64,000 bases of DNA from assembly GCA_964654995.1 (NCBI GenBank), contig CAZZKF010000003.1, positions 12,276-76,275 of the forward strand, read 5' to 3'. Positions 3,883 through 62,820 of the stretch are shown one piece after another. This stretch comes from an uncultured Alphaproteobacteria bacterium (GTDB taxonomy: Bacteria; Pseudomonadota; Alphaproteobacteria; CAZZKF01). A program made the translations under genes and the position numbers. The notes under the pieces were generated by a model. It did no database searches. It was given only the letters and a program-made list of their open reading frames with translations, and had not been told where the DNA came from. Every line of letters starts with the position of its first letter. The first letter of the stretch is position 1.

Positions 3883-4221
3883 TCAATGATCGCCGTCATC
3901 GGCCACGGCGGTTTCGGCCCGCACCCAGTCGAGATAGGCGGGATTGCCCTGCTCGATCGGCCAGGCGACGATGCACGGGCAGTCGTATTCGTGGATGTCA
4001 CGGATGCGGGCGATGACGTCGGCCACCAGGTCGCTGCGGGTCTTGGCAATCAGCGCCGCCTCGCCTTCCTCGCAGACCTCGCCCTGCCAGCGAAAGACCG
4101 AATCGACATGCTCGAAGACGTTGGCACAGGCAACCAGCCGGCGCCCGACCAGATCGCGGGCAATGGCCAGGGCCGAAGCCCGCGTCGCGGCCGTCACATA
4201 GATGGAGCTGAGCCCGGTCAT
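3883..4221 (-). CDS. cutA: Divalent-cation tolerance protein CutA
   Basis: ~112 aa from MTGLSSIYVT. The CutA1-like sequence includes DCPCIVAWPIEQGNPAYLDWV. Confidence 0.75.
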   Translation of the reverse strand: MTGLSSIYVTAATRASALAIARDLVGRRLVACANVFEHVDSVFRWQGEVCEEGEAALIAKTRSDLVADVIARIRDIHEYDCPCIVAWPIEQGNPAYLDWVRAETAVADDGDH

Positions 4222-5258
4222 GCCATCAGGCTGGGCCGCTGGCGGGCGACGTAAACGCAATAGATCACCGCCGTGAACAGCAGCAGCGCAAAGCCCTGAT
4301 GGATGACGCCCAGCGCGATCGGCACATTATGCACCAGGGTGAAAACCCCGAGCGTGGCCTGCACCAGCACCGCCAGCGCCACCAGATGCACCGCCCCGCG
4401 CAGCCCCGGCGGCGCGGCGCGGTGGAGCTTCCACCAGAAGATGGCGGTGACGAGGACGATCAGATAGGCAAGCATGCGATGATCGAACTGCACGGTCATC
4501 AGGTTCTCGGTGAGATTGGCGTACCAGGGCTGCATCGAGAGCAGGCCGGCCGGCACCAGACTGCCGTCCATCAACGGCCAGGTGTTGTACGCATGTCCGG
4601 CATCGAGCCCGGCGACCAGCCCGCCCGAGAGAATCTGCACGAAGACGAGCCCGCCGATGACCCCGGCCCAGCGGCGGATACGGACATCGCTGCGCCCGTG
4701 CTCGACCAGCAGGCCCAGCGCCACCCAGAAAATATATCCGAAGATCACCACCGCGAAGGCAAGGTGCGCGGTGAGGCGATAATGGCTGACATCGGGCTGA
4801 TCGACGAGGCCGCTTTTGACCATGTACCAGCCCATCAGCCCCTGCAGCGCGCCGAGCACGAACATGATCACCAGCTTCGGCATGATCCCTTCGGGGATGC
4901 GCCGGCGCACCGCGTAATAGATGAAGGGGATGAGAAAGACGAGGCCGATGAGGCGCCCCAGTACGCGATGGGCATACTCGACGTAATAGATGCCCTTGAA
5001 GGCCTCGAGGTCCATCCAGACGTTGAGCTTCTGGAACTCGGGGTATTGCTGGTAGCGGGCGAACTCGGTCTGCCAGGCCTGCTGGCTCAGCGGCGGCAGC
5101 CATCCGGTGACCGGCCGCCAGTCGGTCATCGACAGCCCCGATTCGGTGAGGCGCGTATAGCCACCGAGCGTCACCATGGCGAAAATCAGCACGCAGACGG
5201 TGATCAGCCACCAGCCGATCTGACGCGGCGCCGGGCCGGGTCTCGCAAATTGGATCAT
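4218..5258 (-). CDS. ctaA: Heme A synthase (COX15/CtaA family)
   Basis: 346 aa polytopic membrane protein with the conserved His-containing helices of COX15/CtaA (YAHRVLG, FDHRMLAY). Confidence 0.8.
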   Translation of the reverse strand: MIQFARPGPAPRQIGWWLITVCVLIFAMVTLGGYTRLTESGLSMTDWRPVTGWLPPLSQQAWQTEFARYQQYPEFQKLNVWMDLEAFKGIYYVEYAHRVLGRLIGLVFLIPFIYYAVRRRIPEGIMPKLVIMFVLGALQGLMGWYMVKSGLVDQPDVSHYRLTAHLAFAVVIFGYIFWVALGLLVEHGRSDVRIRRWAGVIGGLVFVQILSGGLVAGLDAGHAYNTWPLMDGSLVPAGLLSMQPWYANLTENLMTVQFDHRMLAYLIVLVTAIFWWKLHRAAPPGLRGAVHLVALAVLVQATLGVFTLVHNVPIALGVIHQGFALLLFTAVIYCVYVARQRPSLMA

Positions 5259-5479
5259 CTCCTTGCCCTCGAACTATCGCCGGGAAGCGCCGTCGCCCGC
5301 ACGCCGCCCACAGACCACAATCAGACGATTCGAGGCGAGGCTAACACCAATCCCGAACCGAGGCCAAGAGGGTGGTGAGCCGGCGACACCGCCCTGGCGC
5401 GATGCGCGCTTTCGGGTGGCGCCGGAGGCCGAGTCCCGGCAGAATGCCGCCGAGTGCATCAACCGGGGGGACGGGCGCC

Positions 5480-6628: not shown

Positions 6629-6705
<77 letters not shown>

Positions 6706-24990: not shown

Positions 24991-27900
24991 CTACATGTTG
25001 CGCCGGTAACGTCCGCCGACCTCGAACAGCGCCTGGGTGATCTGGCCGAGCGAGCAGTGCTGGACCGCGTCCATCAGCACCTCGAAGATGTTTTCGCCGC
25101 GGGCCGCCGCCTGCTTGAGACGCTCGAGATGATGCGGCGCCTCAGCCGCATGGCGTTTCTGAAAGGCGCGCAGACGGGCAAGCTGGCTGTTTTTCACCTC
25201 GTCCGTGGAGCGCGCCAGCTCGATCACCTGTGGCTCGTCCGACGGCTCGTCGTCAAGGAAGGTGTTGACACCGATGATCGGCAGTGAGCCATCGTGCTTG
25301 CGGGTCTCATAAAGGATCGATTCCTCCTGGATGCGGCTGCGCTGATAGCCGGTTTCCATGGCCCCGAGGACGCCGCCGCGCTCTGCGATGCGCTCGAACT
25401 CGGCCAGCACCGCTTCTTCCACCAGGTCGGTGAGTTCCTCGATGATGAACGAGCCCTGGTTGGGATTCTCGTTCCTGGCCAGCCCCCATTCGTTGTTGAT
25501 GATCAACTGGATGGCCAGTGCCCGGCGCACGGACTCATGGGTCGGCGTGGTGATCGCCTCGTCATAGGCGTTGGTGTGCAGGCTGTTGCAATTGTCATAG
25601 GTGGCGATCAGCGCCTGCAGCGTCGTGCGGATGTCGTTGAATTCCATTTCCTGGGCGTGCAGCGAGCGGCCCGAGGTCTGGATGTGGTACTTGAGCTTCT
25701 GGGCGCGCTCGCGGGCGCCGTAGCGGAAACGCATGGCGGTGGCCCAGATGCGCCGCGCCACGCGCCCCAGCACGGCGAATTCGGGATCCATGCCGTTGGA
25801 GAAGAAGAACGACAGATTGGGCGCGAAATCGTCGATATGCAGGCCGCGCGCCAGATAGCTCTCGACATAGGTAAAGCCGTTGGCGAGCGTAAATGCGAGC
25901 TGGGTGATCGGGTTGGCACCGGCTTCCGCAATGTGATAGCCGGAAATCGACACCGAATAGAAATTGCGCACCTTGTTCTGGACGAAATATTCGGCAATGT
26001 CGCCCATCATGCGCAGCGCGAATTCGGTCGAAAAGATGCAGGTGTTCTGTCCCTGATCCTCTTTCAGGATGTCGGCCTGCACCGTGCCGCGGACGTTCTC
26101 CAGAACCCAGGCGCGGATCTTGTCGGCCTCGCCCTCGGTCGGGCTGCGGCCGTTGTCGCGCTCGAACTTCTCCAGCTGCTGGGCGATGGCGGTGTTGAGG
26201 AACATCGCCAGAATCGTCGGCGCCGGGCCGTTGATCGTCATCGACACCGAGGTCGAAGGATCGCACAGATCGAAGCCGTCGTAGAGCGCCTTCATGTCGT
26301 CAAGGGTGGCGATCGAGACCCCGGAATTGCCGATCTTGCCATAGATGTCGGGGCGCTCATCCGGATCGAAGCCGTAAAGGGTGACCGAATCAAACGCCGT
26401 GGACAGGCGCTTGGCCTTGGCGTGGCGTGAGAGATATTTGAACCGGCGGTTGGTCTGGAAGGCATCGCCCTCGCCGGCGAACATGCGGGCCGGCTCTTCC
26501 TCCTCGCGCTTGAAGGCGAAGACGCCCGCCGTATAGGGGAAGGAGCCCGGCAGATTTTCCTTCAAGAGCCATTTCAGAAGCTCGCCGTCGTCCTCGAACT
26601 TGGGGAGCGCCACCTTGGGGATCGAGCTTCCCGACAGCGTCGTGTGGCGGATCTGGGTGCGGATCTCGCGATTGCGGATGCGAACCACATATTCCTCGCC
26701 TGAATAGCTCTCGCGGACCTTGGGCCAGATATCGAGGAGCTTTTTCGCCCGCGGGTCCATGGCCTGCTCGCGGGTGTCCGCCAACGCATCGACATCACCA
26801 TGCGGCTTGCCCGCGTCGGCCAGCATGCGCGCGGTTTCGCGCAGGCTCTGGCGCTCGCGCGCCAGCCGCACCTGTTCGGCCACCGTCTTGTGATAGTCGC
26901 GCACGGTCTCGGCGATCTCGGCGAGGTAGCGCTGGCGCTTGGGCGGCAGGATCACGAAGGTGCCGGTCGAATGCCGGGTTTCGACCGGCTCCAGCCGCCC
27001 GCCTTCCCACTCGGCGAGGCCGCGCTTGCGGATCACGTCGATGAGGCCGTGATACAGCGCGGTGACCCCGTCGTCATTGAAGCGGGCGGCGATGGTGCCA
27101 TAGACCGGCATTTCCTCAAGCGGCGTCGAGAACAGCTCGTGATTGCGCTGAACCTGCTTGGCGACATCGCGCAGGGCATCCTCGGCGCCGCGGCGGTCGA
27201 ACTTGTTGATCGCCACCAGGTCGGCAAAGTCGAGCATGTCGATTTTCTCGAGCTGGCTCGGGGCGCCGTATTCCGGCGTCATGACGTAGAGCGACACATC
27301 GACCAGCGGCAGAATGCCGGCGTCGCCCTGGCCAATCCCCGGGGTCTCGACGACGATGACGTCGAAACCGGCGATGCGCACCGCATCGATGATGTCGGGC
27401 AGCGGCTTGGGAATCTCGCTGATCGATTCGCGGGTCGCCAGCGAGCGCATGAAAATGCCCGGATGATCGATGGCGTTCATGCGGATGCGGTCGCCCAGGA
27501 GCGCCCCGCCGGTGCGCCGGCGCGACGGATCGACGGCGACGATGGCGATCTTGAGGCGATCGGCAAAATCGAGCCGGAAGCGGCGGATCAGCTCGTCGGT
27601 GAGCGAGGACTTGCCGGCGCCGCCGGTGCCCGTAATGCCGATCACCGGCACGCTAGCGGCCGCCTCGGCGAGGTTGTGCAGGGCGCGGCGCATCTTGGCG
27701 TTCAGGGTGCCGGCCTCGAGCGCCGTAATAATGCGGGCAAGATCGCGCCAGTCGCCCGATTGCAAGCCTTCGAAATCGCCCGGCAGTTCGTGGGCGAGGT
27801 CATGATCGGCCAATCGGCGCATGTCGTCGATCATGCCCTTGAGACCCAAACGCTGGCCGTCGTAGGGCGAATAGATGCGGGTTACGCCATAGGCCTGCAG

Positions 27901-28260
27901 GGCCTCGATCTCATCCGGCACAATGACGCCGCCGCCGCCGCCGAACACCTTGATGTGCTCGCCGCCGCGCTCGCGCAGCATGTCGATCATGTAGCGGAAA
28001 TATTCCATGTGCCCGCCCTGGTACGAGCTGACGGCAATGGCATGCACGTCTTCCTGCAGGGCGGCGGTGACGATTTCCTCGACCGAGCGGTTGTGGCCCA
28101 GATGAATGACCTCGGCGCCAGCGGCCTGAAGAATGCGCCGCATGACGTTGATCGCCGCATCGTGGCCGTCGAACAGCGAGGTCGCGGTGACCACCCGGAT
28201 GCGGTTGCGCGCCTTGTAGAAAAACCGGTCCTGAACCACCTTTGCGGCCGGTTGCGCCAT
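24991..28260 (-). CDS. icmF: Fused isobutyryl-CoA mutase IcmF (B12-binding + MeaB-like GTPase + mutase catalytic domains)
   Basis: 1089 aa. N-terminal B12-binding DxHxxG ([10 protein letters not shown]), a central P-loop GTPase ([16 protein letters not shown]) and a C-terminal (beta/alpha)8 mutase domain. Confidence 0.88.
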
Positions 28261-36388: not shown

Positions 36389-36510
36389 TCTGGCCGTGAT
36401 CCGATCAACTCGGTGGCAACCGCCACCGGTCGGTTGCGTTTGTTCCCCCGGTTCCTATACTTGCGGCGGGCGAAGTCCCGGATCGCACTTCTGTGGGGGA
36501 GCCGTTGATG

Positions 36511-37593
36511 TCGATCAAGCGCCGCACTTTTCTCAAACGGGCCGCGGCCGGAACCGTGGCCGGGGCGACGCTCAGCGCCCCGGCAATCGCCGCCGGACGG
36601 CGCCGTCTCAAGATGGTCACCACCTGGCCGAAGAACTTTCCCGGCGTCGGCACCGGCGCCGAGCGCCTCGCCCGGCGGATCACCGAGGCCAGCGACGGCC
36701 AGCTCACCGTGCGGGTGCTGGCCGCCGGCGAACTGGTCCCCGCTTTCAGCTCGTTCGATGCGGTGTCCAGCGGCACCGCCGAGATGTATCACGGCGCCGA
36801 TTACTACTGGCAGGGCAAGTCCAAGGCCTTCAACTTCTATTCCGCCGTCCCCTTCGGCATGACCGGGCCGGAACTGGCCGCCTGGATCCGGGTCGGCGGC
36901 GGTCAGGAGCTGTGGGACGAACTGTGCGCGCCGTTCGGCATCAAGCCGTTCTTCGCCGGCGGCACCGGGGCCCAGATGGGCGGCTGGTTCAAGAAGGAAA
37001 TCAATTCGCTGGAGGACTTCAAGGGCCTCAAGATCCGCATGCCGGGATTGGGCGGCGAGGTTCTGCGGCGCCTTGGCGCGGCCGCCGTCACTCTGCCGGC
37101 CGGCGAGATTTTCCCGGCCCTGCAGTCGGGTGCGATCGACGCCACCGAATGGATCGGACCGTGGAACGATCTTGCCTTCGGCTTCTACAAGATCGTCAAA
37201 TACTACTACTACCCGGGCTTTCACGAACCCGGCACCGGTCTGGGGGTGGGCATCAACATGGAGGTCTGGGAGAGCTTCACCAAAAGCCAGAAGGCGATCA
37301 TCCGCGACGCCATGGCCGCCGAGCAGAGCGTCATGGTCGCCGAATTCGACGGCCGCAACGCCCAGGCGCTCGAGGTCCTGCTGCGCGATCACGGCGTCAA
37401 GCTGCGCCGCTTTTCGGACGACATCCTGCGCGCCATCCGCAAGGTCTCGGCCGAAGTCGTCGCCAAGGCCGCCGAGAGCGATGCCATGTCGAAAAAGGTC
37501 TATGACAGCTACACGGCGTTCCAGAAAAGCATCATGGGCTGGAGTGATGTCACGGCGCATGCCTACGAGAACGCCCGGCGTCTGCCCGATTGA
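36511..37593 (+). CDS. dctP: TRAP transporter substrate-binding protein (DctP family), Tat signal
   Basis: MSIKRRTFLKRAAAGTVAGATLSAPAIAAG is a twin-arginine signal, followed by a DctP-like periplasmic binding fold. Confidence 0.8.
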   Translation, partial: SIKRRTFLKRAAAGTVAGATLSAPAIAAGRRRLKMVTTWPKNFPGVGTGAERLARRITEASDGQLTVRVLAAGELVPAFSSFDAVSSGTAEMYHGADYYWQGKSKAFNFYSAVPFGMTGPELAAWIRVGGGQELWDELCAPFGIKPFFAGGTGAQMGGWFKKEINSLEDFKGLKIRMPGLGGEVLRRLGAAAVTLPAGEIFPALQSGAIDATEWIGPWNDLAFGFYKIVKYYYYPGFHEPGTGLGVGINMEVWESFTKSQKAIIRDAMAAEQSVMVAEFDGRNAQALEVLLRDHGVKLRRFSDDILRAIRKVSAEVVAKAAESDAMSKKVYDSYTAFQKSIMGWSDVTAHAYENARRLPD

Positions 37594-57507: not shown

Positions 57508-57757
57508 CGGCAGACTCCGTAGAGACTTTTCGGGCCGGAGACGCTGCAGGACATGTTCAGGCATCGCGCGGACAGCCGGGCCCGCCACCCACCGCATTTG
57601 AGCGTATGCACGATACCGCTCGGCACCCTGCAGCCGTCAACTCGCGGCCTGCTGCGGATCGGCGAGGACTTCCGCACCCTCGGCGGCATGGGTGACGGGG
57701 GTTGCGTTCCATCAAGACTCGCCTGCTCCGGGCCGCCGTGAACAGCTTTTTTACGCT

Positions 57758-57771
57758 CTTGACATGGGTCA
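57758..57771. promoter_or_regulatory. CRP/FNR-family palindrome TTGACATGGGTCAA upstream of nirK
   Basis: Perfect 5-4-5 inverted repeat (TTGAC-N4-GTCAA), ~150 nt upstream of the nirK ATG, in an otherwise GC-rich 415-nt intergenic region. Confidence 0.5.
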
Positions 57772-57922
57772 AGGATGCATTGTCTGTTCTGCACTAGCGT
57801 CCCGGCGCAACGATAACTTCGCGTCAACGAACGGGTATGGCCGTACGGCCAGCGACTCCAGGAAACCCGTCAAGGCAATGCTACCGACGCCCAGACCGGG
57901 CGTCTCGCCGAAAGGAGCGATC

Positions 57923-59326
57923 ATGACTGCACCGATTCCCGAGCGACGCCGCCCGTTCCGGTGGATTCCGGCGACCGTCGGCCTGGTTCTGCTGATCTGC
58001 CTGCCGGCAGCGACCGCTCTGGCCGCCATGGCCGCCGAGCCAACCGATGTCAATTATGAACCCGAAGCCCGCTTCACGCTGATCACCACGGTGGCGCACG
58101 GCCAGATGGCCTTCATCGGAGAGGGTGGGCTTATCGACGGCATCATCAATCCCACGCTTGTGGTCAAGCAAGGCACGATCGTGCAAATCACATTGATCAA
58201 TGGCGAGGGAGCCAAACACGACATCGTCATCCCCGAATTCGGTGTCAACTCGCAATGGGTCACCGATCCGGAGGGAAGCACCGTCACCGTGTTTCGCGCC
58301 GATGGCCCCGGCGAGTTCACCTATTACTGCAGTATTCCCGGCCATCGCGAGGCCGGCATGGAAGGCTTGATCCGTGTCGTCGCAGAGCCCGAGGTGATTG
58401 TTGGCGGCAAGGCCGACATTTCGCGCCTGCCGACCGACCTGCCCAAGCCGGTGGGCAAGCGCAAACCCAAGACCGTCCGTTACGAGCTCGAAACCCTCGA
58501 GGTCGACGGCCAGTTGAGCGACGGCACGTCGTATACCTTCTGGACCTTCGGCGGCAAAGTGCCGGGGCCGTTCCTGCGGGCCCGCGTCGGCGACACCATC
58601 GAACTGGTGCTCAAGAACTCGCAGGGCAGCCTGATGACCCACTCCATCGATCTGCACGCGGTCAACGGGCCGGGCGGTGGCGGCGCCGTGACACAGGTCC
58701 CGCCGGGCCAGAAGCGCATTTTCACGTTCAAGGCGTTGACCCCGGGACTGTACGTCTATCACTGCGCCACGCCGATGGTCGCCAACCATATCGCCAACGG
58801 CATGTACGGGCTGGTTCTGATCGAGCCGGAAGGCGGTCTGCCGCCGGTCGATCGTGAATTCTACGTCATGCAGGGCGAGGTCTACACGGCTGCCGGCTAC
58901 GGCATGCACGGCTATCAGGAATTCAGTGTCCGCAAGCTGCTCGAAGAACGGCCCGACTATTTCGTCTTCAATGGCGCCGTCGGAGCGATCAGCCGCGATC
59001 ATCCCCTGAAGGCCAAGGCTGGGGAGACCGTGCGCATCTTCTTCGGCAACGGCGGGCCGAATTTCACCTCGAACTTCCACGTGATCGGTGAAATCTTCGA
59101 CCGCGTTTACGAGCACGGCAGTGTGCTGACGCCGCCGCTCAAAGGCGTTCAGACCATTCCGGTCTCACCGGGCAGCGCCGCCATTGTCGATATGAAGCTT
59201 GATGTTCCGGGACGTTATCTCCTGGTCGATCATGCACTGGCGCGCATGGAACGCGGCCTCGTCGGATTTCTCAGGGTCTCCGGCAAGGACAATCCCGCGG
59301 TCTTTCATGAAGGACGAGCCAAATAG
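57923..59326 (+). CDS. nirK: Copper-containing nitrite reductase with an additional N-terminal cupredoxin domain
   Basis: RBS AAGGAG precedes the ATG. Signal peptide (RRRPFRW...ALAAMAA), then a ~100-aa plastocyanin/amicyanin-like domain (HDIVIPEF...YYCSIPGHREAGMEG), then the canonical two-domain NirK with T1Cu (HCATPMVANHIANGMYG) and T2Cu ligands (HSIDLHAV). Confidence 0.88.
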   Translation: MTAPIPERRRPFRWIPATVGLVLLICLPAATALAAMAAEPTDVNYEPEARFTLITTVAHGQMAFIGEGGLIDGIINPTLVVKQGTIVQITLINGEGAKHDIVIPEFGVNSQWVTDPEGSTVTVFRADGPGEFTYYCSIPGHREAGMEGLIRVVAEPEVIVGGKADISRLPTDLPKPVGKRKPKTVRYELETLEVDGQLSDGTSYTFWTFGGKVPGPFLRARVGDTIELVLKNSQGSLMTHSIDLHAVNGPGGGGAVTQVPPGQKRIFTFKALTPGLYVYHCATPMVANHIANGMYGLVLIEPEGGLPPVDREFYVMQGEVYTAAGYGMHGYQEFSVRKLLEERPDYFVFNGAVGAISRDHPLKAKAGETVRIFFGNGGPNFTSNFHVIGEIFDRVYEHGSVLTPPLKGVQTIPVSPGSAAIVDMKLDVPGRYLLVDHALARMERGLVGFLRVSGKDNPAVFHEGRAK

Positions 59327-59406
59327 GCTTGCGTGATTGGCGGCCCGGGCCTCTTTTGCGAAATCGGCCCGGGCCAAAATCACTGCATTGGTTGAAGGAT
59401 GACGGC

Positions 59407-59802
59407 ATGAAACAGGCGGCATTCCGCATTTCGCTCGGGCTGGTGCTGGCAATGTTCACGGCAAGCACAGTGGTGCAAGCTGCCGGCGATCCCGAAAAGG
59501 GCGCCAAGATATTCCAACGTTGCAAGGCCTGCCACACCCTGATCGAGGGGCAGAAGAAGATCGGCCCCAATCTGCGCAACGTGTTCGGACGCAAGGCCGG
59601 CTCCTTGCCTGCCTACCGCTATTCCAAGGCCATGTCGAAAGCAGGAGAATCAGGGATTGTCTGGAACGAGGAAACTCTGGACAAATTCCTCAAGAAACCT
59701 TCCAAGTTCGTGCGCGGGACCGAGATGATGTTCAACGGCATCCGGTCGGCCCAACAGCGCCAGGACGTGATCGAGTTCCTCAAGCAACAGACCACCAGAT
59801 AA
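59407..59802 (+). CDS. Class I cytochrome c (c2/c550-like)
   Basis: Signal peptide, GDPEKGAKIFQRCKACHT (CxxCH), GPNLRNVFGRKAG and a Met ligand region (GTEMMFNG). 131 aa, sits 80 nt downstream of nirK. Confidence 0.8.
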   Translation: MKQAAFRISLGLVLAMFTASTVVQAAGDPEKGAKIFQRCKACHTLIEGQKKIGPNLRNVFGRKAGSLPAYRYSKAMSKAGESGIVWNEETLDKFLKKPSKFVRGTEMMFNGIRSAQQRQDVIEFLKQQTTR

Positions 59803-59809
59803 CCGTACC

Positions 59810-59842
59810 GGTGGCGCCGGCGCCTGGTTCGCCGGCGCCACC
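59810..59842 (+). terminator. GC hairpin immediately after the cytochrome c gene
   Basis: ggtggcgccggcg - cctggttc - cgccggcgccacc, a perfect 12-13 bp stem, with no U-tract. Confidence 0.35.
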
Positions 59843-60388
59843 GAGCGGGCCCGCCCCGAGGGCCGATCAACACCCACAAGCAGGCCAAACGCCAGCCCCG
59901 ACGTGATCTGTCTCGCGGCACGATGCGCCGACACGGCGCGGCCACCGCCGGCAAGGCATGGACGTCACCCCGCTGGCAGCAGGCCTGCGTGCCTGCCAGG
60001 GCCCGGCTCGATGGCCGGTGATCGATCGCGCGGCACCATCGGAGGCACCGGTGCCGGCTTGACCGGACGTAGGCGTCGAGCCCGGCACTGCACCGTCTGT
60101 GGCATGGCGTGCCGGACCCGCGGCAGCGCACGACGTTTCCGGCCCGGCACCGGATCGGGCTGCGGCGGCCGGCCGCCCGTACAGAGCCACCGGATCCTGC
60201 GCTTCGCCTGACCGGTGCGGGATGCAACAGCGCCCAGGATGTGCTCCGCCGGACCAGCACAGACTGGCCGGCCAGGCGGATCCGCGGCCTTCACCCGCAC
60301 GCCCGGCGCTGGAGAGAGCGGCAACGGCCAAAGAAAATCGGCGGGTGGGAGACCGTTTCGGCCTCGCCACCCGCCGTCAGATCGGGGA

Positions 60389-60421
60389 CCCCGCCGGCGC
60401 CTCCGCGAAACGCCGGCGGGG
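60389..60421 (-). terminator. GC hairpin immediately downstream of the cytochrome-porin gene
   Basis: ccccgccggcg - 11 nt loop - cgccggcgggg, a perfect 11-bp stem 19 nt after the stop of the minus-strand gene. Confidence 0.35.
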
Positions 60422-60439
60422 TTCATCATACGGGGAGTT

Positions 60440-61690
60440 CTAGAACCCGACGGCTGCCTGGATGGTGAACCGTCCACCCTTCTGGAAACCGGTCGGAACG
60501 TTCACTTCCTTGTACCATTCGCCAAAGATCTTGACGTTTTCATAGAGGTAGTAGGAAACGTTCGCCGTCAGTGCCGTGAAGTCCTGCATGCCATTGTTGC
60601 GTTCGAAGCCTTCGATCCGCAGCGACGGCACGATCCATGGTGACTCGGCGTCGGGGCGACGGAACACATAGATGCCCTCGAAGTACCAGGCGTTGTTCTT
60701 CTCCTTCATCGGAAAATCGACGTCGATTTCGTTGACATCGTCGCGGGCATGAACAAAGGCGCCGTGGAAGATGGCATCGGCCACTTCAACCTGGGCATCG
60801 ATTCCGAAGCGGTCGAAGTCGCGTTTGATGGCGCAGACCTCCTCCTGTATGCCTTCGTCTTCGACAACCGTCCCGGCCTGGCATTCACCGGAAAACGCAA
60901 AGCCGCCGATCATCACCTGATCGGGCAGCACGTCGAACATCACCCGGCCACTGAGGTTGCTGGCCTTGTCACCCTCGAAATCACTGGCAATGCCGCTGTA
61001 GCTGGCGCTGTAGAAAAGGCGATCAAGAAGCCGCCCGGACACCGACACCACCTGACGGTTGCTTTTCAGGCTGCCATTGGCGTCGGCCCCGCCAAACGGA
61101 CTGCTGATCACAACGTTGCGTCCGCGGGTCAGGGCTCGTCCGCCCAGGGTGTCGTACGGATCGGTCATGAAAAGCTTTCCGTAGCCGAAGGTCACGTTGA
61201 AGAACGGCGCCGCATGGTAGGTCACCCAACCACTTCCGGCGAGCTGGAAGCCTTCGTCGGACTCACCCTCGAGTTCCAGGAATCCCGAAACCTTCTTGTT
61301 GATCGCACCGGCGGCCATCAGGTGAACGGCTTCCAGCGCCCGGTTGTTGCGCTCGCCGCCTTCCACCTTGTCGTAGGGCTGGGACTCGAAGACCACCGCG
61401 CCCGGAAATTGTTTGTCGAATTGAAGCAGATCGGACAGGATGCTGCCCGGATCGTCGGTCTTTCTGAACTTGTAACCATTTTGCTTGAATTTGCGTCCCG
61501 TGGAGTTCAACAGCGGCCATGCCGCATGGCATTCGCTGCAGGCCACCTTGTACTTGCGAGCGAAAGCCGGGATCGCCAGGGCTTGGGGCGCAAACAGCCC
61601 GGCGAAAAACAGTGCCCCCATTGCCGTGAACACTGCCTTTCTTGCGAAACTGCCCGTCATGACGGTTCTCCCTTCTCGTGTTCGTTTCAT
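60440..61690 (-). CDS. Monoheme c-type cytochrome fused to a predicted outer-membrane beta-barrel (Cyc2-like)
   Basis: Signal peptide (MKRTREGRTVMTGSFARKAVFTAMGALFFAGLFAPQALA) and a single CSECH heme motif ~15 aa after the predicted cleavage site. About 370 aa of Gly/aromatic-rich sequence with alternating hydrophobic strands follow. The C-terminus GRFTIQAAVGF ends in Phe, the classic OMP C-terminal signature. Start is 61690 or 61660. Confidence 0.6.
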   Translation of the reverse strand: MKRTREGRTVMTGSFARKAVFTAMGALFFAGLFAPQALAIPAFARKYKVACSECHAAWPLLNSTGRKFKQNGYKFRKTDDPGSILSDLLQFDKQFPGAVVFESQPYDKVEGGERNNRALEAVHLMAAGAINKKVSGFLELEGESDEGFQLAGSGWVTYHAAPFFNVTFGYGKLFMTDPYDTLGGRALTRGRNVVISSPFGGADANGSLKSNRQVVSVSGRLLDRLFYSASYSGIASDFEGDKASNLSGRVMFDVLPDQVMIGGFAFSGECQAGTVVEDEGIQEEVCAIKRDFDRFGIDAQVEVADAIFHGAFVHARDDVNEIDVDFPMKEKNNAWYFEGIYVFRRPDAESPWIVPSLRIEGFERNNGMQDFTALTANVSYYLYENVKIFGEWYKEVNVPTGFQKGGRFTIQAAVGF

Positions 61691-61761
61691 GCGGAGGCCC
61701 CTGCCTCCTTTGACCAACATGAGCGATGGGCACGGCATACCGGGAAATTTGGCATTTATGA

Positions 61762-61775
61762 TTGATATATATCAA
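61762..61775. promoter_or_regulatory. Consensus FNR box TTGATATATATCAA in the divergent cyc2-like / fnr promoter region
   Basis: Perfect TTGAT-N4-ATCAA, 72 nt upstream of the ATG at 61690 and ~310 nt upstream of the fnr-type gene. It lies in the only AT-rich stretch of this region. Confidence 0.6.
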
Positions 61776-62085
61776 TCCACGGAGGTTTCTGATGGTCCAT
61801 ACAGATCGCCCGGCAAGCCGGAACCAACCCGCTTGTAGCATCAGGACGACCCAATATGCTGGCAGCTAAGACGACATCTATGGGCCAATTATTCATCCAC
61901 TTCAATCTGGTAAAGATGTTCAGTGAGTTTGGACACCGACCGGACGCTCGCCCCTTCGCCACCCCGCACACCATCGATGAGCACAACGGCTTAAACCTGC
62001 GTCACTTTGCCACACTGTTGACTTATATCAAAGTAAATTACGTCAGTTCCCTCGGTGGTGTATGCTAATGAGGAGGCGCAGAACG

Positions 62086-62820
62086 ATGTCATTCGAACGC
62101 ACACTGCCGAAATCCTGTCTGGGATGTCCCGTTTACCTGCGCACCGAGTGGTGCGTACTGGGTCGTACCGGGCTGGCGCAACTGGCGCGCCGGCGCAAGC
62201 CCCTCGACTTTCAGCCCGGCCAGATCATTTTCCAGCAAAAGAGCCTGTCGCAGGGCATCTACTGCATCGAAAGCGGCCACATCCTGTTGCGCCAGGTCGA
62301 CACTTTCGGCAACGAAACCGCCTTTCGCGTATTGACCGGCGGCGAAACCGTGGGCTGGCGCAGCCTGTTCGGTGAACAGCCCCACGCCGCCACCGCCCAG
62401 GCGCTGACCGCCTGCCGGCTGTGTCTGATCACGCGCGACGATTTCGAGGATCTGGCGGCCAGCTACCCGGATCTGGTTCGCCGCTTTCTCAAGACCGTCG
62501 CCACCGACCGCGGCCCGGCGGAAGCGCTGTTGCTGCGCAGTCCGTTGCTGCCGGTTCACATTCGGCTGATCCATCTTCTGATTCTGTTGCGTGACCGCTG
62601 CGCGACCTCGGTGTCGCCGCAGGCGTTGGTGCTGGAACTGCCGCTCAAGCGCAAGCAGATCGCCTCGATGATCGGGGCGCGCACGGAAACCCTGTCGCGG
62701 GCCATCCGCCAGCTTGGCGATATGGAGCTGGCCCAGTTCGAAGGCCGCCGGGTGATGATCCCCGACTATACCCGGCTGCTGGAAATGGTCCGTCAGGTGT
62801 GCACCGAGTCCGGCATCTGA
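62086..62820 (+). CDS. CRP/FNR-family regulator with N-terminal Cys cluster and FNR-type recognition helix
   Basis: RBS AGGAGG at 62071-62076. N-terminal CLGCPVYLRTEWC (three Cys) plus internal Cys. A cNMP-like beta-roll (GQIIFQQKS...GETVG), and a C-terminal HTH containing TETLSRAIRQL, i.e. the E--SR motif that reads TTGAT half-sites. Confidence 0.8.
   Translation: MSFERTLPKSCLGCPVYLRTEWCVLGRTGLAQLARRRKPLDFQPGQIIFQQKSLSQGIYCIESGHILLRQVDTFGNETAFRVLTGGETVGWRSLFGEQPHAATAQALTACRLCLITRDDFEDLAASYPDLVRRFLKTVATDRGPAEALLLRSPLLPVHIRLIHLLILLRDRCATSVSPQALVLELPLKRKQIASMIGARTETLSRAIRQLGDMELAQFEGRRVMIPDYTRLLEMVRQVCTESGI

Follow-up and report, generated by a model that had tools for sequence, protein, structure and literature searches.

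A putative low-oxygen-regulated gene module linking a Cyc2-type cytochrome-porin to a three-domain copper nitrite reductase in an uncultured alphaproteobacterium

Genes for a copper nitrite reductase (nirK), a c-type cytochrome, a predicted Cyc2-type cytochrome-porin (the cyc2-like gene), and a Crp/Fnr-family regulator are found side by side, in this order, in the stretch of DNA analyzed here (the window: 64 kb from an uncultured alphaproteobacterium, with gene positions numbered from its first letter). The cyc2-like gene is convergent to nirK and the cytochrome c gene and divergent from the regulator gene (Table 1). An earlier note on the same DNA had reported this four-gene adjacency, and the genes, motifs, and palindromes that it described are found in place or nearly so. 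The reading that we prefer, with a probability of about one half, is that the four genes form a module that low oxygen turns on and that supplies NirK, by way of cytochrome c, with electrons from outside the cell, probably those of Fe(II). That an outer-membrane conduit and the reductase work together is argued most strongly by the fact that, among the closest related loci, two unrelated outer-membrane conduits adjoin related nirK-cytochrome c units, with operators of one kind.

The electrons would take the following path. At low oxygen, the regulator, which presumably senses by an iron-sulfur (Fe-S) cluster on conserved cysteines, would bind TTGA-N6-TCAA boxes and turn on three units: nirK with the cytochrome c gene, the cyc2-like gene, and the gene for the regulator itself. 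The Cyc2-type protein, an outer-membrane barrel with one c-type heme, would oxidize a soluble donor outside the cell, most probably Fe(II). A periplasmic c550-like cytochrome would then deliver the electrons to the three-domain NirK, where they would enter via the extra N-terminal cupredoxin and move from type-1 to type-2 copper, reducing nitrite to nitric oxide (NO). In relatives, a decaheme conduit of the MtoAB/PioAB type replaces or accompanies Cyc2 in the equivalent neighborhood, a pattern suggesting that the outer-membrane entry points would be interchangeable. Cytochrome c550 and type-1 copper have potentials of about +250 to +350 mV, and nitrite/NO of about +350 mV. Taken with values from the literature, these figures place the path downhill from Fe(II) through Cyc2, c550, and type-1 copper to nitrite. 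The literature values are about 0 ± 100 mV for Fe(II)/Fe(III) at pH 7 and +208 mV for Cyc2 of M. ferrooxydans PV-1 (PMC8406198).

Table 1. Positions in the window of the four genes, their predicted operator boxes, and the spacer between the convergent genes
Feature	Position	Strand	Remarks
FNR/FixK/Dnr-type box TTGACATGGGTCAA	57759..57772	.	Perfect palindrome, centered 158 nt upstream of nirK ATG
nirK, three-domain copper nitrite reductase	57923..59326	+	467 aa; N-terminal cupredoxin and two-domain core
Class I c-type cytochrome gene (c2/c550-like)	59407..59802	+	131 aa; signal peptide, CKACH
Spacer between convergent cytochrome c and cyc2-like genes	59803..60439		637 nt, 73.6% G+C
cyc2-like gene	60440..61660	-	406 aa; signal peptide, monoheme cytochrome domain fused to outer-membrane porin barrel
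Canonical FNR box TTGATATATATCAA	61762..61775	.	Perfect palindrome, centered 108 nt upstream of cyc2-like ATG
FNR-type box TTGACTTATATCAA	62018..62031	.	Imperfect, centered 61 nt upstream of regulator ATG
Crp/Fnr-family regulator gene	62086..62820	+	244 aa; divergent from cyc2-like gene

The contig that holds the closest homologue of the cyc2-like protein (P0154, 55% identity; contig L139) carries all four gene families in a different order. It reads mtoB, mtoA, cytochrome c, nirK, and fnr on one strand, followed by the divergent cyc2-like gene. Besides the 55% for the cyc2-like protein, identities to the window proteins are 62% for the regulator, 72% for NirK (by tblastn), and 53% for the cytochrome c. 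Four perfect TTGA-N6-TCAA boxes are found in promoter positions of this contig, where 0.10 are expected. A box equivalent to that of the window, TTGATGAAAGTCAA, lies 112 nt upstream of the cyc2-like gene and another box, TTGATAAATATCAA, just upstream of fnr. A single-mismatch box at 5265 is upstream of nirK. The four-gene association thus survives rearrangement.

The closest NirK homologue obtained in the first search (P0033, 69% identity) is encoded in contig L053, where fnr, nirK, cytochrome c, mtoA, and mtoB follow one another on the same strand and cyc2 is lacking. Boxes precede nirK (at 6704 and 6877) and mtoA, with four seen against 0.22 expected. The MtoA/PioA-like cytochrome has 10 CxxCH motifs in 306 amino acids, and MtoB is a porin of the MtrB_PioB family (743 amino acids in L053). 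L139 holds both conduits, one of the MtoAB type and the cyc2-like gene. In both contigs (regions L053:5928-12469 and L139:3-6161) the nirK is of the three-domain kind, and an FNR-type box is found between the cytochrome c gene and mtoA. The functional coupling of the genes, which the earlier note had itself offered as inference, is supported at the level of gene context because the four genes recur linked in L139 and because an MtoAB-type conduit stands beside nirK and cytochrome c in both L053 and L139.

The cyc2-like protein carries the signatures published for Cyc2. Keffer et al. (2021, PMC8406198) describe Cyc2 as having a signal peptide, one CXXCH, and a sequence AXPXFAR[Q/K][T/Y] upstream of it that is called unique to Cyc2. 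They further give a PXL four residues after CXXCH, a length of at least 365 amino acids, and a 16-stranded porin modelled on OprP/OprO (PDB 2O4V, 4RJW; PMC8406198). In the window protein, a signal peptide read from the sequence ends in ...PQALA, with cleavage between MTGSFARKAVFTAMGALFFAGLFAPQALA and IPAF; a single CSECH follows 12 residues into the mature chain, and the C-terminus is ...AAVGF, with a terminal Phe. The cytochrome domain reads AIPAFARKY-KVA-CSECH-AAW-PLL. Its A-I-P-A-F-A-R-K-Y fits the Cyc2 consensus with five residues separating R from the first Cys, its CSECH-AAW-PLL fits the PXL signature, and the length of 406 amino acids exceeds the 365 required. The C51, C54, and H55 of the heme motif are invariant across 27 homologues. 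The predicted structure is an OprP-like barrel, in agreement with the 16-stranded C-terminal porin of the OprP/OprO kind described for Cyc2, and the anion-specific porin OprP is its best structural match. The earlier note had recognized the signal peptide, the lone CxxCH near the mature N-terminus, and the ...AAVGF end, all of which are present. Its proposal of a Cyc2-type architecture, for which it named barrel prediction as a check, agrees with the consensus carried by the protein and with the OprP-like barrel obtained. The open reading frame (ORF) that it gave as 60440-61690 is a gene with the features described; its start moves to the ATG at 61660, which is preceded by an AAGGGAG site and agrees with public gene calls (P0001, 406 amino acids). 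Judged by its motifs and modelled fold, the 406-amino-acid protein is a predicted Cyc2-type cytochrome-porin.

No family in Pfam or NCBIfam matches this protein, and a search of PDB with a profile of its family gave nothing significant. A word-indexed search found 26 close relatives of 34-54% identity, all of them unnamed or annotated as hypothetical. When the profile was searched against 1.8 billion cluster representatives (clustered at 50% identity), 168 clusters were found at E ≤ 1e-30, and relaxing the limit to 1e-10 and to 1e-3 raised this to 1,796 and 4,396, respectively; by this measure the cyc2-like proteins are a small sub-family within a large superfamily. Twelve longer proteins (398-511 amino acids) were taken from the weaker matches, several of them checked to bear the AIPAFAR...CxxCH signature. 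The hhalign comparison with these extends through both domains (365 columns), with a probability of 100% and an E value of 1.5e-68. Among the top 150 representatives, 108 are full-length, and 18 of these match the strict motif; the sub-family admits variants (AVPSFARD and AVPAYARKY, for example), and the window protein has the strict form. A disulfide is suggested by two cysteines in a predicted barrel loop (GECQAG...EEVCAIKRDF), neither of which varies among the nine closest homologues. At least 90% of 27 cyc2-like sequences retain His120 (in the numbering of a 416-amino-acid form), which could be a candidate distal heme ligand.

NirK is encoded in an ORF of 57692-59326. Translation probably begins at the ATG at 57923, which is preceded by the ribosome-binding site GGAG and agrees with public gene calls. 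It scores 340 bits on the equivalog model TIGR02376 (cutoff 296) and matches the domains Cupredoxin_1, Copper-bind, Cu-oxidase_2, and Cu-oxidase_3. The extra N-terminal domain is marked by the Cupredoxin_1 and Copper-bind (plastocyanin-type) matches at residues ~155-230 of the long ORF. Type-1 copper ligands can be read from the sequence as H...C-x4-H-x4-M in this domain and as HC...H...M in the core. An equivalog score above the cutoff and an N-terminal cupredoxin with type-1 copper ligands together identify a three-domain NirK, and the protein aligns over its full length (residues 40-467, E 3.6e-173) with PDB 2dv6, which is such an enzyme. The description of NirK with an additional N-terminal cupredoxin in the earlier note is therefore upheld by score, domain matches, and alignment. 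The cytochrome c gene starts 80 nt 3' of nirK. Its product was described before as a periplasmic cytochrome c2-like protein, in keeping with its PF00034 match (36.6 bits, cutoff 21.3), its CKACH motif, and its signal peptide; on the CycA model NF043008 it scores 84 bits, under the cutoff of 240. Homologues of 50-53% identity are encoded directly 3' of nirK in L053 and L139, and from its place and type this cytochrome is the probable electron donor of NirK.

The regulator ORF extends from 62062 to 62820, with a likely start at 62086 behind GAGGAGG, and its product has the domains cNMP_binding (PF00027) and HTH_Crp_2 (PF13545). The recognition helix ETLSR is invariant in an alignment of five orthologues and has the E--SR signature. 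This signature is that of regulators binding TTGAT-type boxes. Cys11, Cys14, Cys60, Cys110, and Cys113 are also invariant across the five, and the third N-terminal cysteine of the window regulator, C23, is not conserved in the orthologues. Such a pattern would be compatible with an Fe-S sensor. TTGA-N6-TCAA occurs four times in the window against 0.37 expected, and none of 100 shuffles reached four; three of the four sites fall in promoter regions of this cluster. The perfect palindromes that had been reported upstream of nirK and of the cytochrome-porin gene, TTGACATGGGTCAA and TTGATATATATCAA, are confirmed and belong to this enriched set. The third box, TTGACTTATATCAA, was not listed in the earlier note, and its position makes autoregulation of the regulator gene possible. 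The fourth TTGA-N6-TCAA site, TTGATGTCGATCAA (36505-36518), overlaps the start codon of a solute-binding gene (MSIKRRTFLK..., 36508-37593) of a tripartite ATP-independent periplasmic (TRAP) transporter, upstream of DctQ- and DctM-like genes. This site may be due to chance or may be a repressing site.

The pair of divergent fnr and cyc2-like genes is kept in five other contigs (L003, L054, L055, L139, and L140), three of which (L003, L054, and L055) have a conserved ATGACATTTATCAT box upstream of the cyc2-like gene. The intergenic regions of these three (L003:360-790, L054:2627-2900, and L055:3557-3870) share a AAACATGACATTTATCATTTTTTTC segment that includes the palindrome ATGA-N6-TCAT, a variant operator differing from TTGA-N6-TCAA. 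In L054, a gene for a 340-amino-acid 4Fe-4S dicluster (Fer4_7) protein follows the cyc2-like gene (4213-5235), and a DUF4139/DUF4140 gene is found beyond the regulator in L054 and L055.

An adjacent ORF with one to eight CxxCH motifs is found at 24 of the 48 analyzable genome loci of the family, and such neighbors fit a hand-off of electrons from Cyc2 to periplasmic carriers. Two kinds occur directly 3' of the cyc2-like gene: a triheme protein of ~237 amino acids (L009, L014, L015, L017, L019, L020, L023, and L026) and a protein of ~100-209 amino acids with one or two hemes (L011, L016, L024, L031, L037, L039, L043, and L052). Both families occur in metagenome-assembled genomes (MAGs) of Gammaproteobacteria and Emcibacter, and to judge from their position they may be dedicated periplasmic acceptors of this Cyc2 sub-family.

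Several observations weigh against a dedicated path from Cyc2 to NirK. A tblastn search with NirK, cytochrome c, and the regulator on 50 genome and 80 metagenome loci of the family found one FNR neighbor (L003) and no nirK. Altogether nirK is within reach at none of 128 other loci of the sub-family, many of which lie on short contigs. The informative loci came from individual close homologues and not from this family-wide scan. The synteny search that the earlier note had proposed is therefore divided in its outcome: the four genes are linked in L139, in another order, and no nirK appears across the family at large. On these counts the linkage would not exceed chance for the family as a whole; its closest homologues differ. 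Moreover, L139 and L053 come from one metagenome assembly (ERZ26661859) and possibly from kin of the window's organism, and are not fully independent of it. For NirK relatives at 60-66% identity, the surrounding genes are unremarkable. Co-transcription is excluded, as is a single operon, because the cyc2-like gene is convergent to nirK and cytochrome c across a gap of 637 nt.

The protein assignments have weak points of the same bearing. The assignment to Cyc2 was made by published motifs, a structural model, and profile homology to longer motif-bearing proteins. The modelled cytochrome domain has a predicted local distance difference test (pLDDT) score below 50, because the model contains no heme. 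The regulator attains the cutoff of no named equivalog: it scores 53.6 against 228 for Fnr, 51.1 against 300 for FnrL, and 36.5 against 300 for FixK. Its cysteines are arranged as CxxC (11/14), C60, and CxxC (110/113), compared with Cx2Cx5C...C122 (C20, C23, C29, and C122) in E. coli FNR. The FNR-type regulator of the earlier note thus stands as far as the E--SR helix and the conserved cysteines go, and falls short of the named cutoffs and of the cysteine spacing in E. coli FNR. From its sequence it is fairly described as an FNR-type member of the Crp/Fnr family and is not classed as an orthologue of any named regulator; its cysteine pattern may mark a distinct sensor subgroup of the family.

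A further difficulty is energetic. A route from Cyc2 through cytochrome c to NirK would conserve no energy by itself, because it is wholly periplasmic and NirK is not electrogenic, and its selective value as a catabolic pathway is doubtful. The chain pumps no protons and would therefore not be a self-sufficient energy-conserving pathway. We infer that the module would serve as an electron sink, in nitrite or Fe(II) detoxification, or as a branch of a larger nitrate-dependent Fe(II)-oxidizing chain.

The main rival, which we consider somewhat unlikely, is a shared regulon without a dedicated path. Cyc2 would then feed a general cytochrome c pool, mainly toward a high-affinity oxidase under microoxic conditions, NirK would draw on the same pool, which bc1 also fills, and the clustering would come only from the common FNR-type low-oxygen regulator. 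The separate box and orientation of each unit fit this explanation, as do the position of most members of the sub-family away from nirK and a conserved core that consists of the divergent fnr and cyc2-like genes. nirK is absent from the 8 kb 3' of the cyc2-like gene in L003 and from ~1.3 kb in L054; on the fnr side, L003 breaks off inside fnr and L054 has only the DUF4139/DUF4140 gene, and L055 and L140 end just past the cyc2-like gene. Known Cyc2-bearing iron oxidizers are, in addition, mostly microaerophiles with cbb3 oxidases (PMC8406198, PMC8114936). A shared regulon does not, however, account well for a linkage that outlasts the rearrangement in L139 or for two non-homologous conduits beside nirK and cytochrome c, and no oxidase genes are found in the window locus, L139, or L053.

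That the cytochrome-porin has another role is improbable. Its electrons could come from a different source outside the cell, such as reduced humics, sulfide minerals, or a partner cell, or its OprP-like, anion-selective-type barrel could let nitrite or NO pass the outer membrane, with the heme as sensor or scavenger. The structural match to an anion-specific porin points this way, and the sub-family is present in sulfur-oxidizing lineages (Thiomargarita, Parabeggiatoa, and Acidiferrobacterales) and in Nitrospirota. Many Cyc2 homologues are functionally unverified, with other functions possible (Keffer et al., PMC8406198). On the other hand, the protein retains in full the cytochrome signature by which validated Fe(II) oxidases are defined, and the equivalent neighborhood is held by MtoAB, an electron conduit rather than an anion channel. 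The periplasmic cytochromes that adjoin half of the loci point to electron transfer and away from solute passage. Chance adjacency of a Cyc2 homologue and a regulator to a nirK-cytochrome c operon without functional relation, for which the convergent genes, long spacer, and housekeeping flanks might speak, is already disfavored to the point of being hardly credible: the same four families stand together in another order in L139, at 53-72% protein identities that also argue against a recent rearrangement within one species, and the same box type is found on all units in all three loci.

The genes surrounding the proposed module are housekeeping genes: bioA, bioF, and bioD precede it and an RtcA-like gene comes after it. 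The window also contains genes for ParC, an H+-pyrophosphatase, and an IcmF-like mutase, the last a fused B12-binding/MeaB/methylmalonyl-CoA-mutase gene encoding 1089 amino acids (24991-28260). One tRNA gene (6632-6705) is the sole Rfam match across the window. Neither mtoAB (no tblastn signal in the window) nor denitrification genes other than nirK (among the window ORFs scanned) are found. An identical locus is present in a Joint Genome Institute (JGI) metagenome and in a Logan assembly. The named relatives of the window's ParC, from a Sphingomonadales MAG, Rhodospirillaceae, Kiloniellaceae, and Kordiimonas, reach no more than 72% identity to it. A Hyphomicrobium host, to which the match of NirK to 2dv6 had pointed, is ruled out, the ParC relatives being other, distant alphaproteobacterial lineages.

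The spacer between the convergent genes has a G+C content far above the 51.5% of the other intergenic region. It contains no called gene in public data, no Rfam match, no terminator-like site, and no Pfam match on its ORFs, and its third-position G+C periodicity is weak. A decayed mtoAB is ruled out by the lack of tblastn similarity to mtoA or mtoB; the spacer could be another decayed gene or an unrecognized element. Horizontal gain of the cyc2-like gene is also unsupported: its G+C content at third codon positions is 0.75 and that of its neighbors 0.76-0.84, a difference too small to indicate it.

Whether nitrate- or nitrite-dependent Fe(II) oxidation is enzymatic, and by which route electrons would pass from the cell surface to denitrification enzymes, has long been disputed. 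Cyc2 or MtoA feeding denitrification enzymes is a standing hypothesis for nitrate-reducing Fe(II) oxidizers (bioRxiv 10.64898/2026.01.22.701106, PMC10993476, PMC8114936). The enrichments that serve as models have their candidate genes dispersed, and no periplasmic link is known for them (bioRxiv 10.64898/2026.01.22.701106). The literature searched, whose coverage is incomplete so that this is absence of evidence only, gave no report of a physical cyc2-cytochrome c-nirK linkage, of FNR-type boxes on a cyc2 gene, or of Cyc2-type and MtoAB-type conduits alternating beside nirK. The parts are all of familiar kinds, namely the Cyc2 family, three-domain NirK, class I cytochrome c, and Crp/Fnr regulators, and no new protein family is involved.

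A more general claim, that uncultured Alphaproteobacteria possess a modular unit leading extracellular electrons to nitrite, in which a single FNR-type switch controls a three-domain NirK, a c550 dedicated to it, and exchangeable outer-membrane conduits (of Cyc2 type, of MtoAB type, or of both) that feed them, is put forward only tentatively. If true, no enzymatic route for nitrite-dependent Fe(II) oxidation or electron uptake would have been defined genetically before this one. As a small defined gene set, the compact locus makes the coupling of iron and nitrogen directly testable. It also suggests that Cyc2 homologues outside the classical iron oxidizers can belong to anaerobic or microoxic regulons, which affects the use of cyc2 as a marker gene in metagenomes.

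Among known systems, the nitrite reductase HdNIR of Hyphomicrobium denitrificans (PDB 2dv6; 6tfd) resembles the window NirK in domain order, full-length homology, and every copper ligand motif. A c550-like cytochrome is encoded beside the window nirK, and cytochrome c550 is reportedly the physiological donor of HdNIR. Unlike in that case, the host of the window is only distantly related to named genera and the nirK neighborhood holds outer-membrane electron conduits. The locus is also similar to FNR/FixK/Dnr denitrification regulons, having an E--SR Crp/Fnr regulator, TTGA-N6-TCAA upstream of nirK, and apparent autoregulation; it differs from them in that the putative regulon includes an outer-membrane cytochrome-porin.

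The cyc2-like protein shares with Cyc2 of A. ferrooxidans and M. ferrooxydans PV-1 and with Cyt572 of Leptospirillum (PMC8406198) the signal peptide, the single CXXCH near the mature N-terminus, the AXPXFAR[Q/K][T/Y] and PXL signatures, a length of ~400 amino acids, the OprP-like barrel, the C-terminal Phe, and periplasmic c-type cytochrome genes that often adjoin. Unlike these named proteins, it belongs to a compact sub-family of ~380-410 amino acids without a characterized member. Its gene, unlike known cyc2, is paired with a divergent Crp/Fnr gene, stands behind an FNR box, is linked to nirK, and lies outside any rus/cox-type operon in a host that is no obligate iron oxidizer. The cyc2-like gene holds a place beside nirK and cytochrome c, with an FNR-type box in front, that is equivalent to that of conduits of the MtoAB/PioAB/MtrAB kind, which are implicated in Fe(II) oxidation and electron uptake. 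Those conduits are not homologous to Cyc2 and have a separate 10-heme periplasmic subunit and a porin of the MtrB_PioB family. The electron routes proposed for the nitrate-reducing Fe(II) oxidizers (Ferrigenium of culture KS and Ca. Siderophilus) follow the same scheme, with Cyc2 or MtoA at the surface, periplasmic cytochromes, and denitrification enzymes as sinks. Their genes are scattered, whereas the window has those for the candidate surface oxidase, a cytochrome c, and NirK in physical linkage, with a single operator type.

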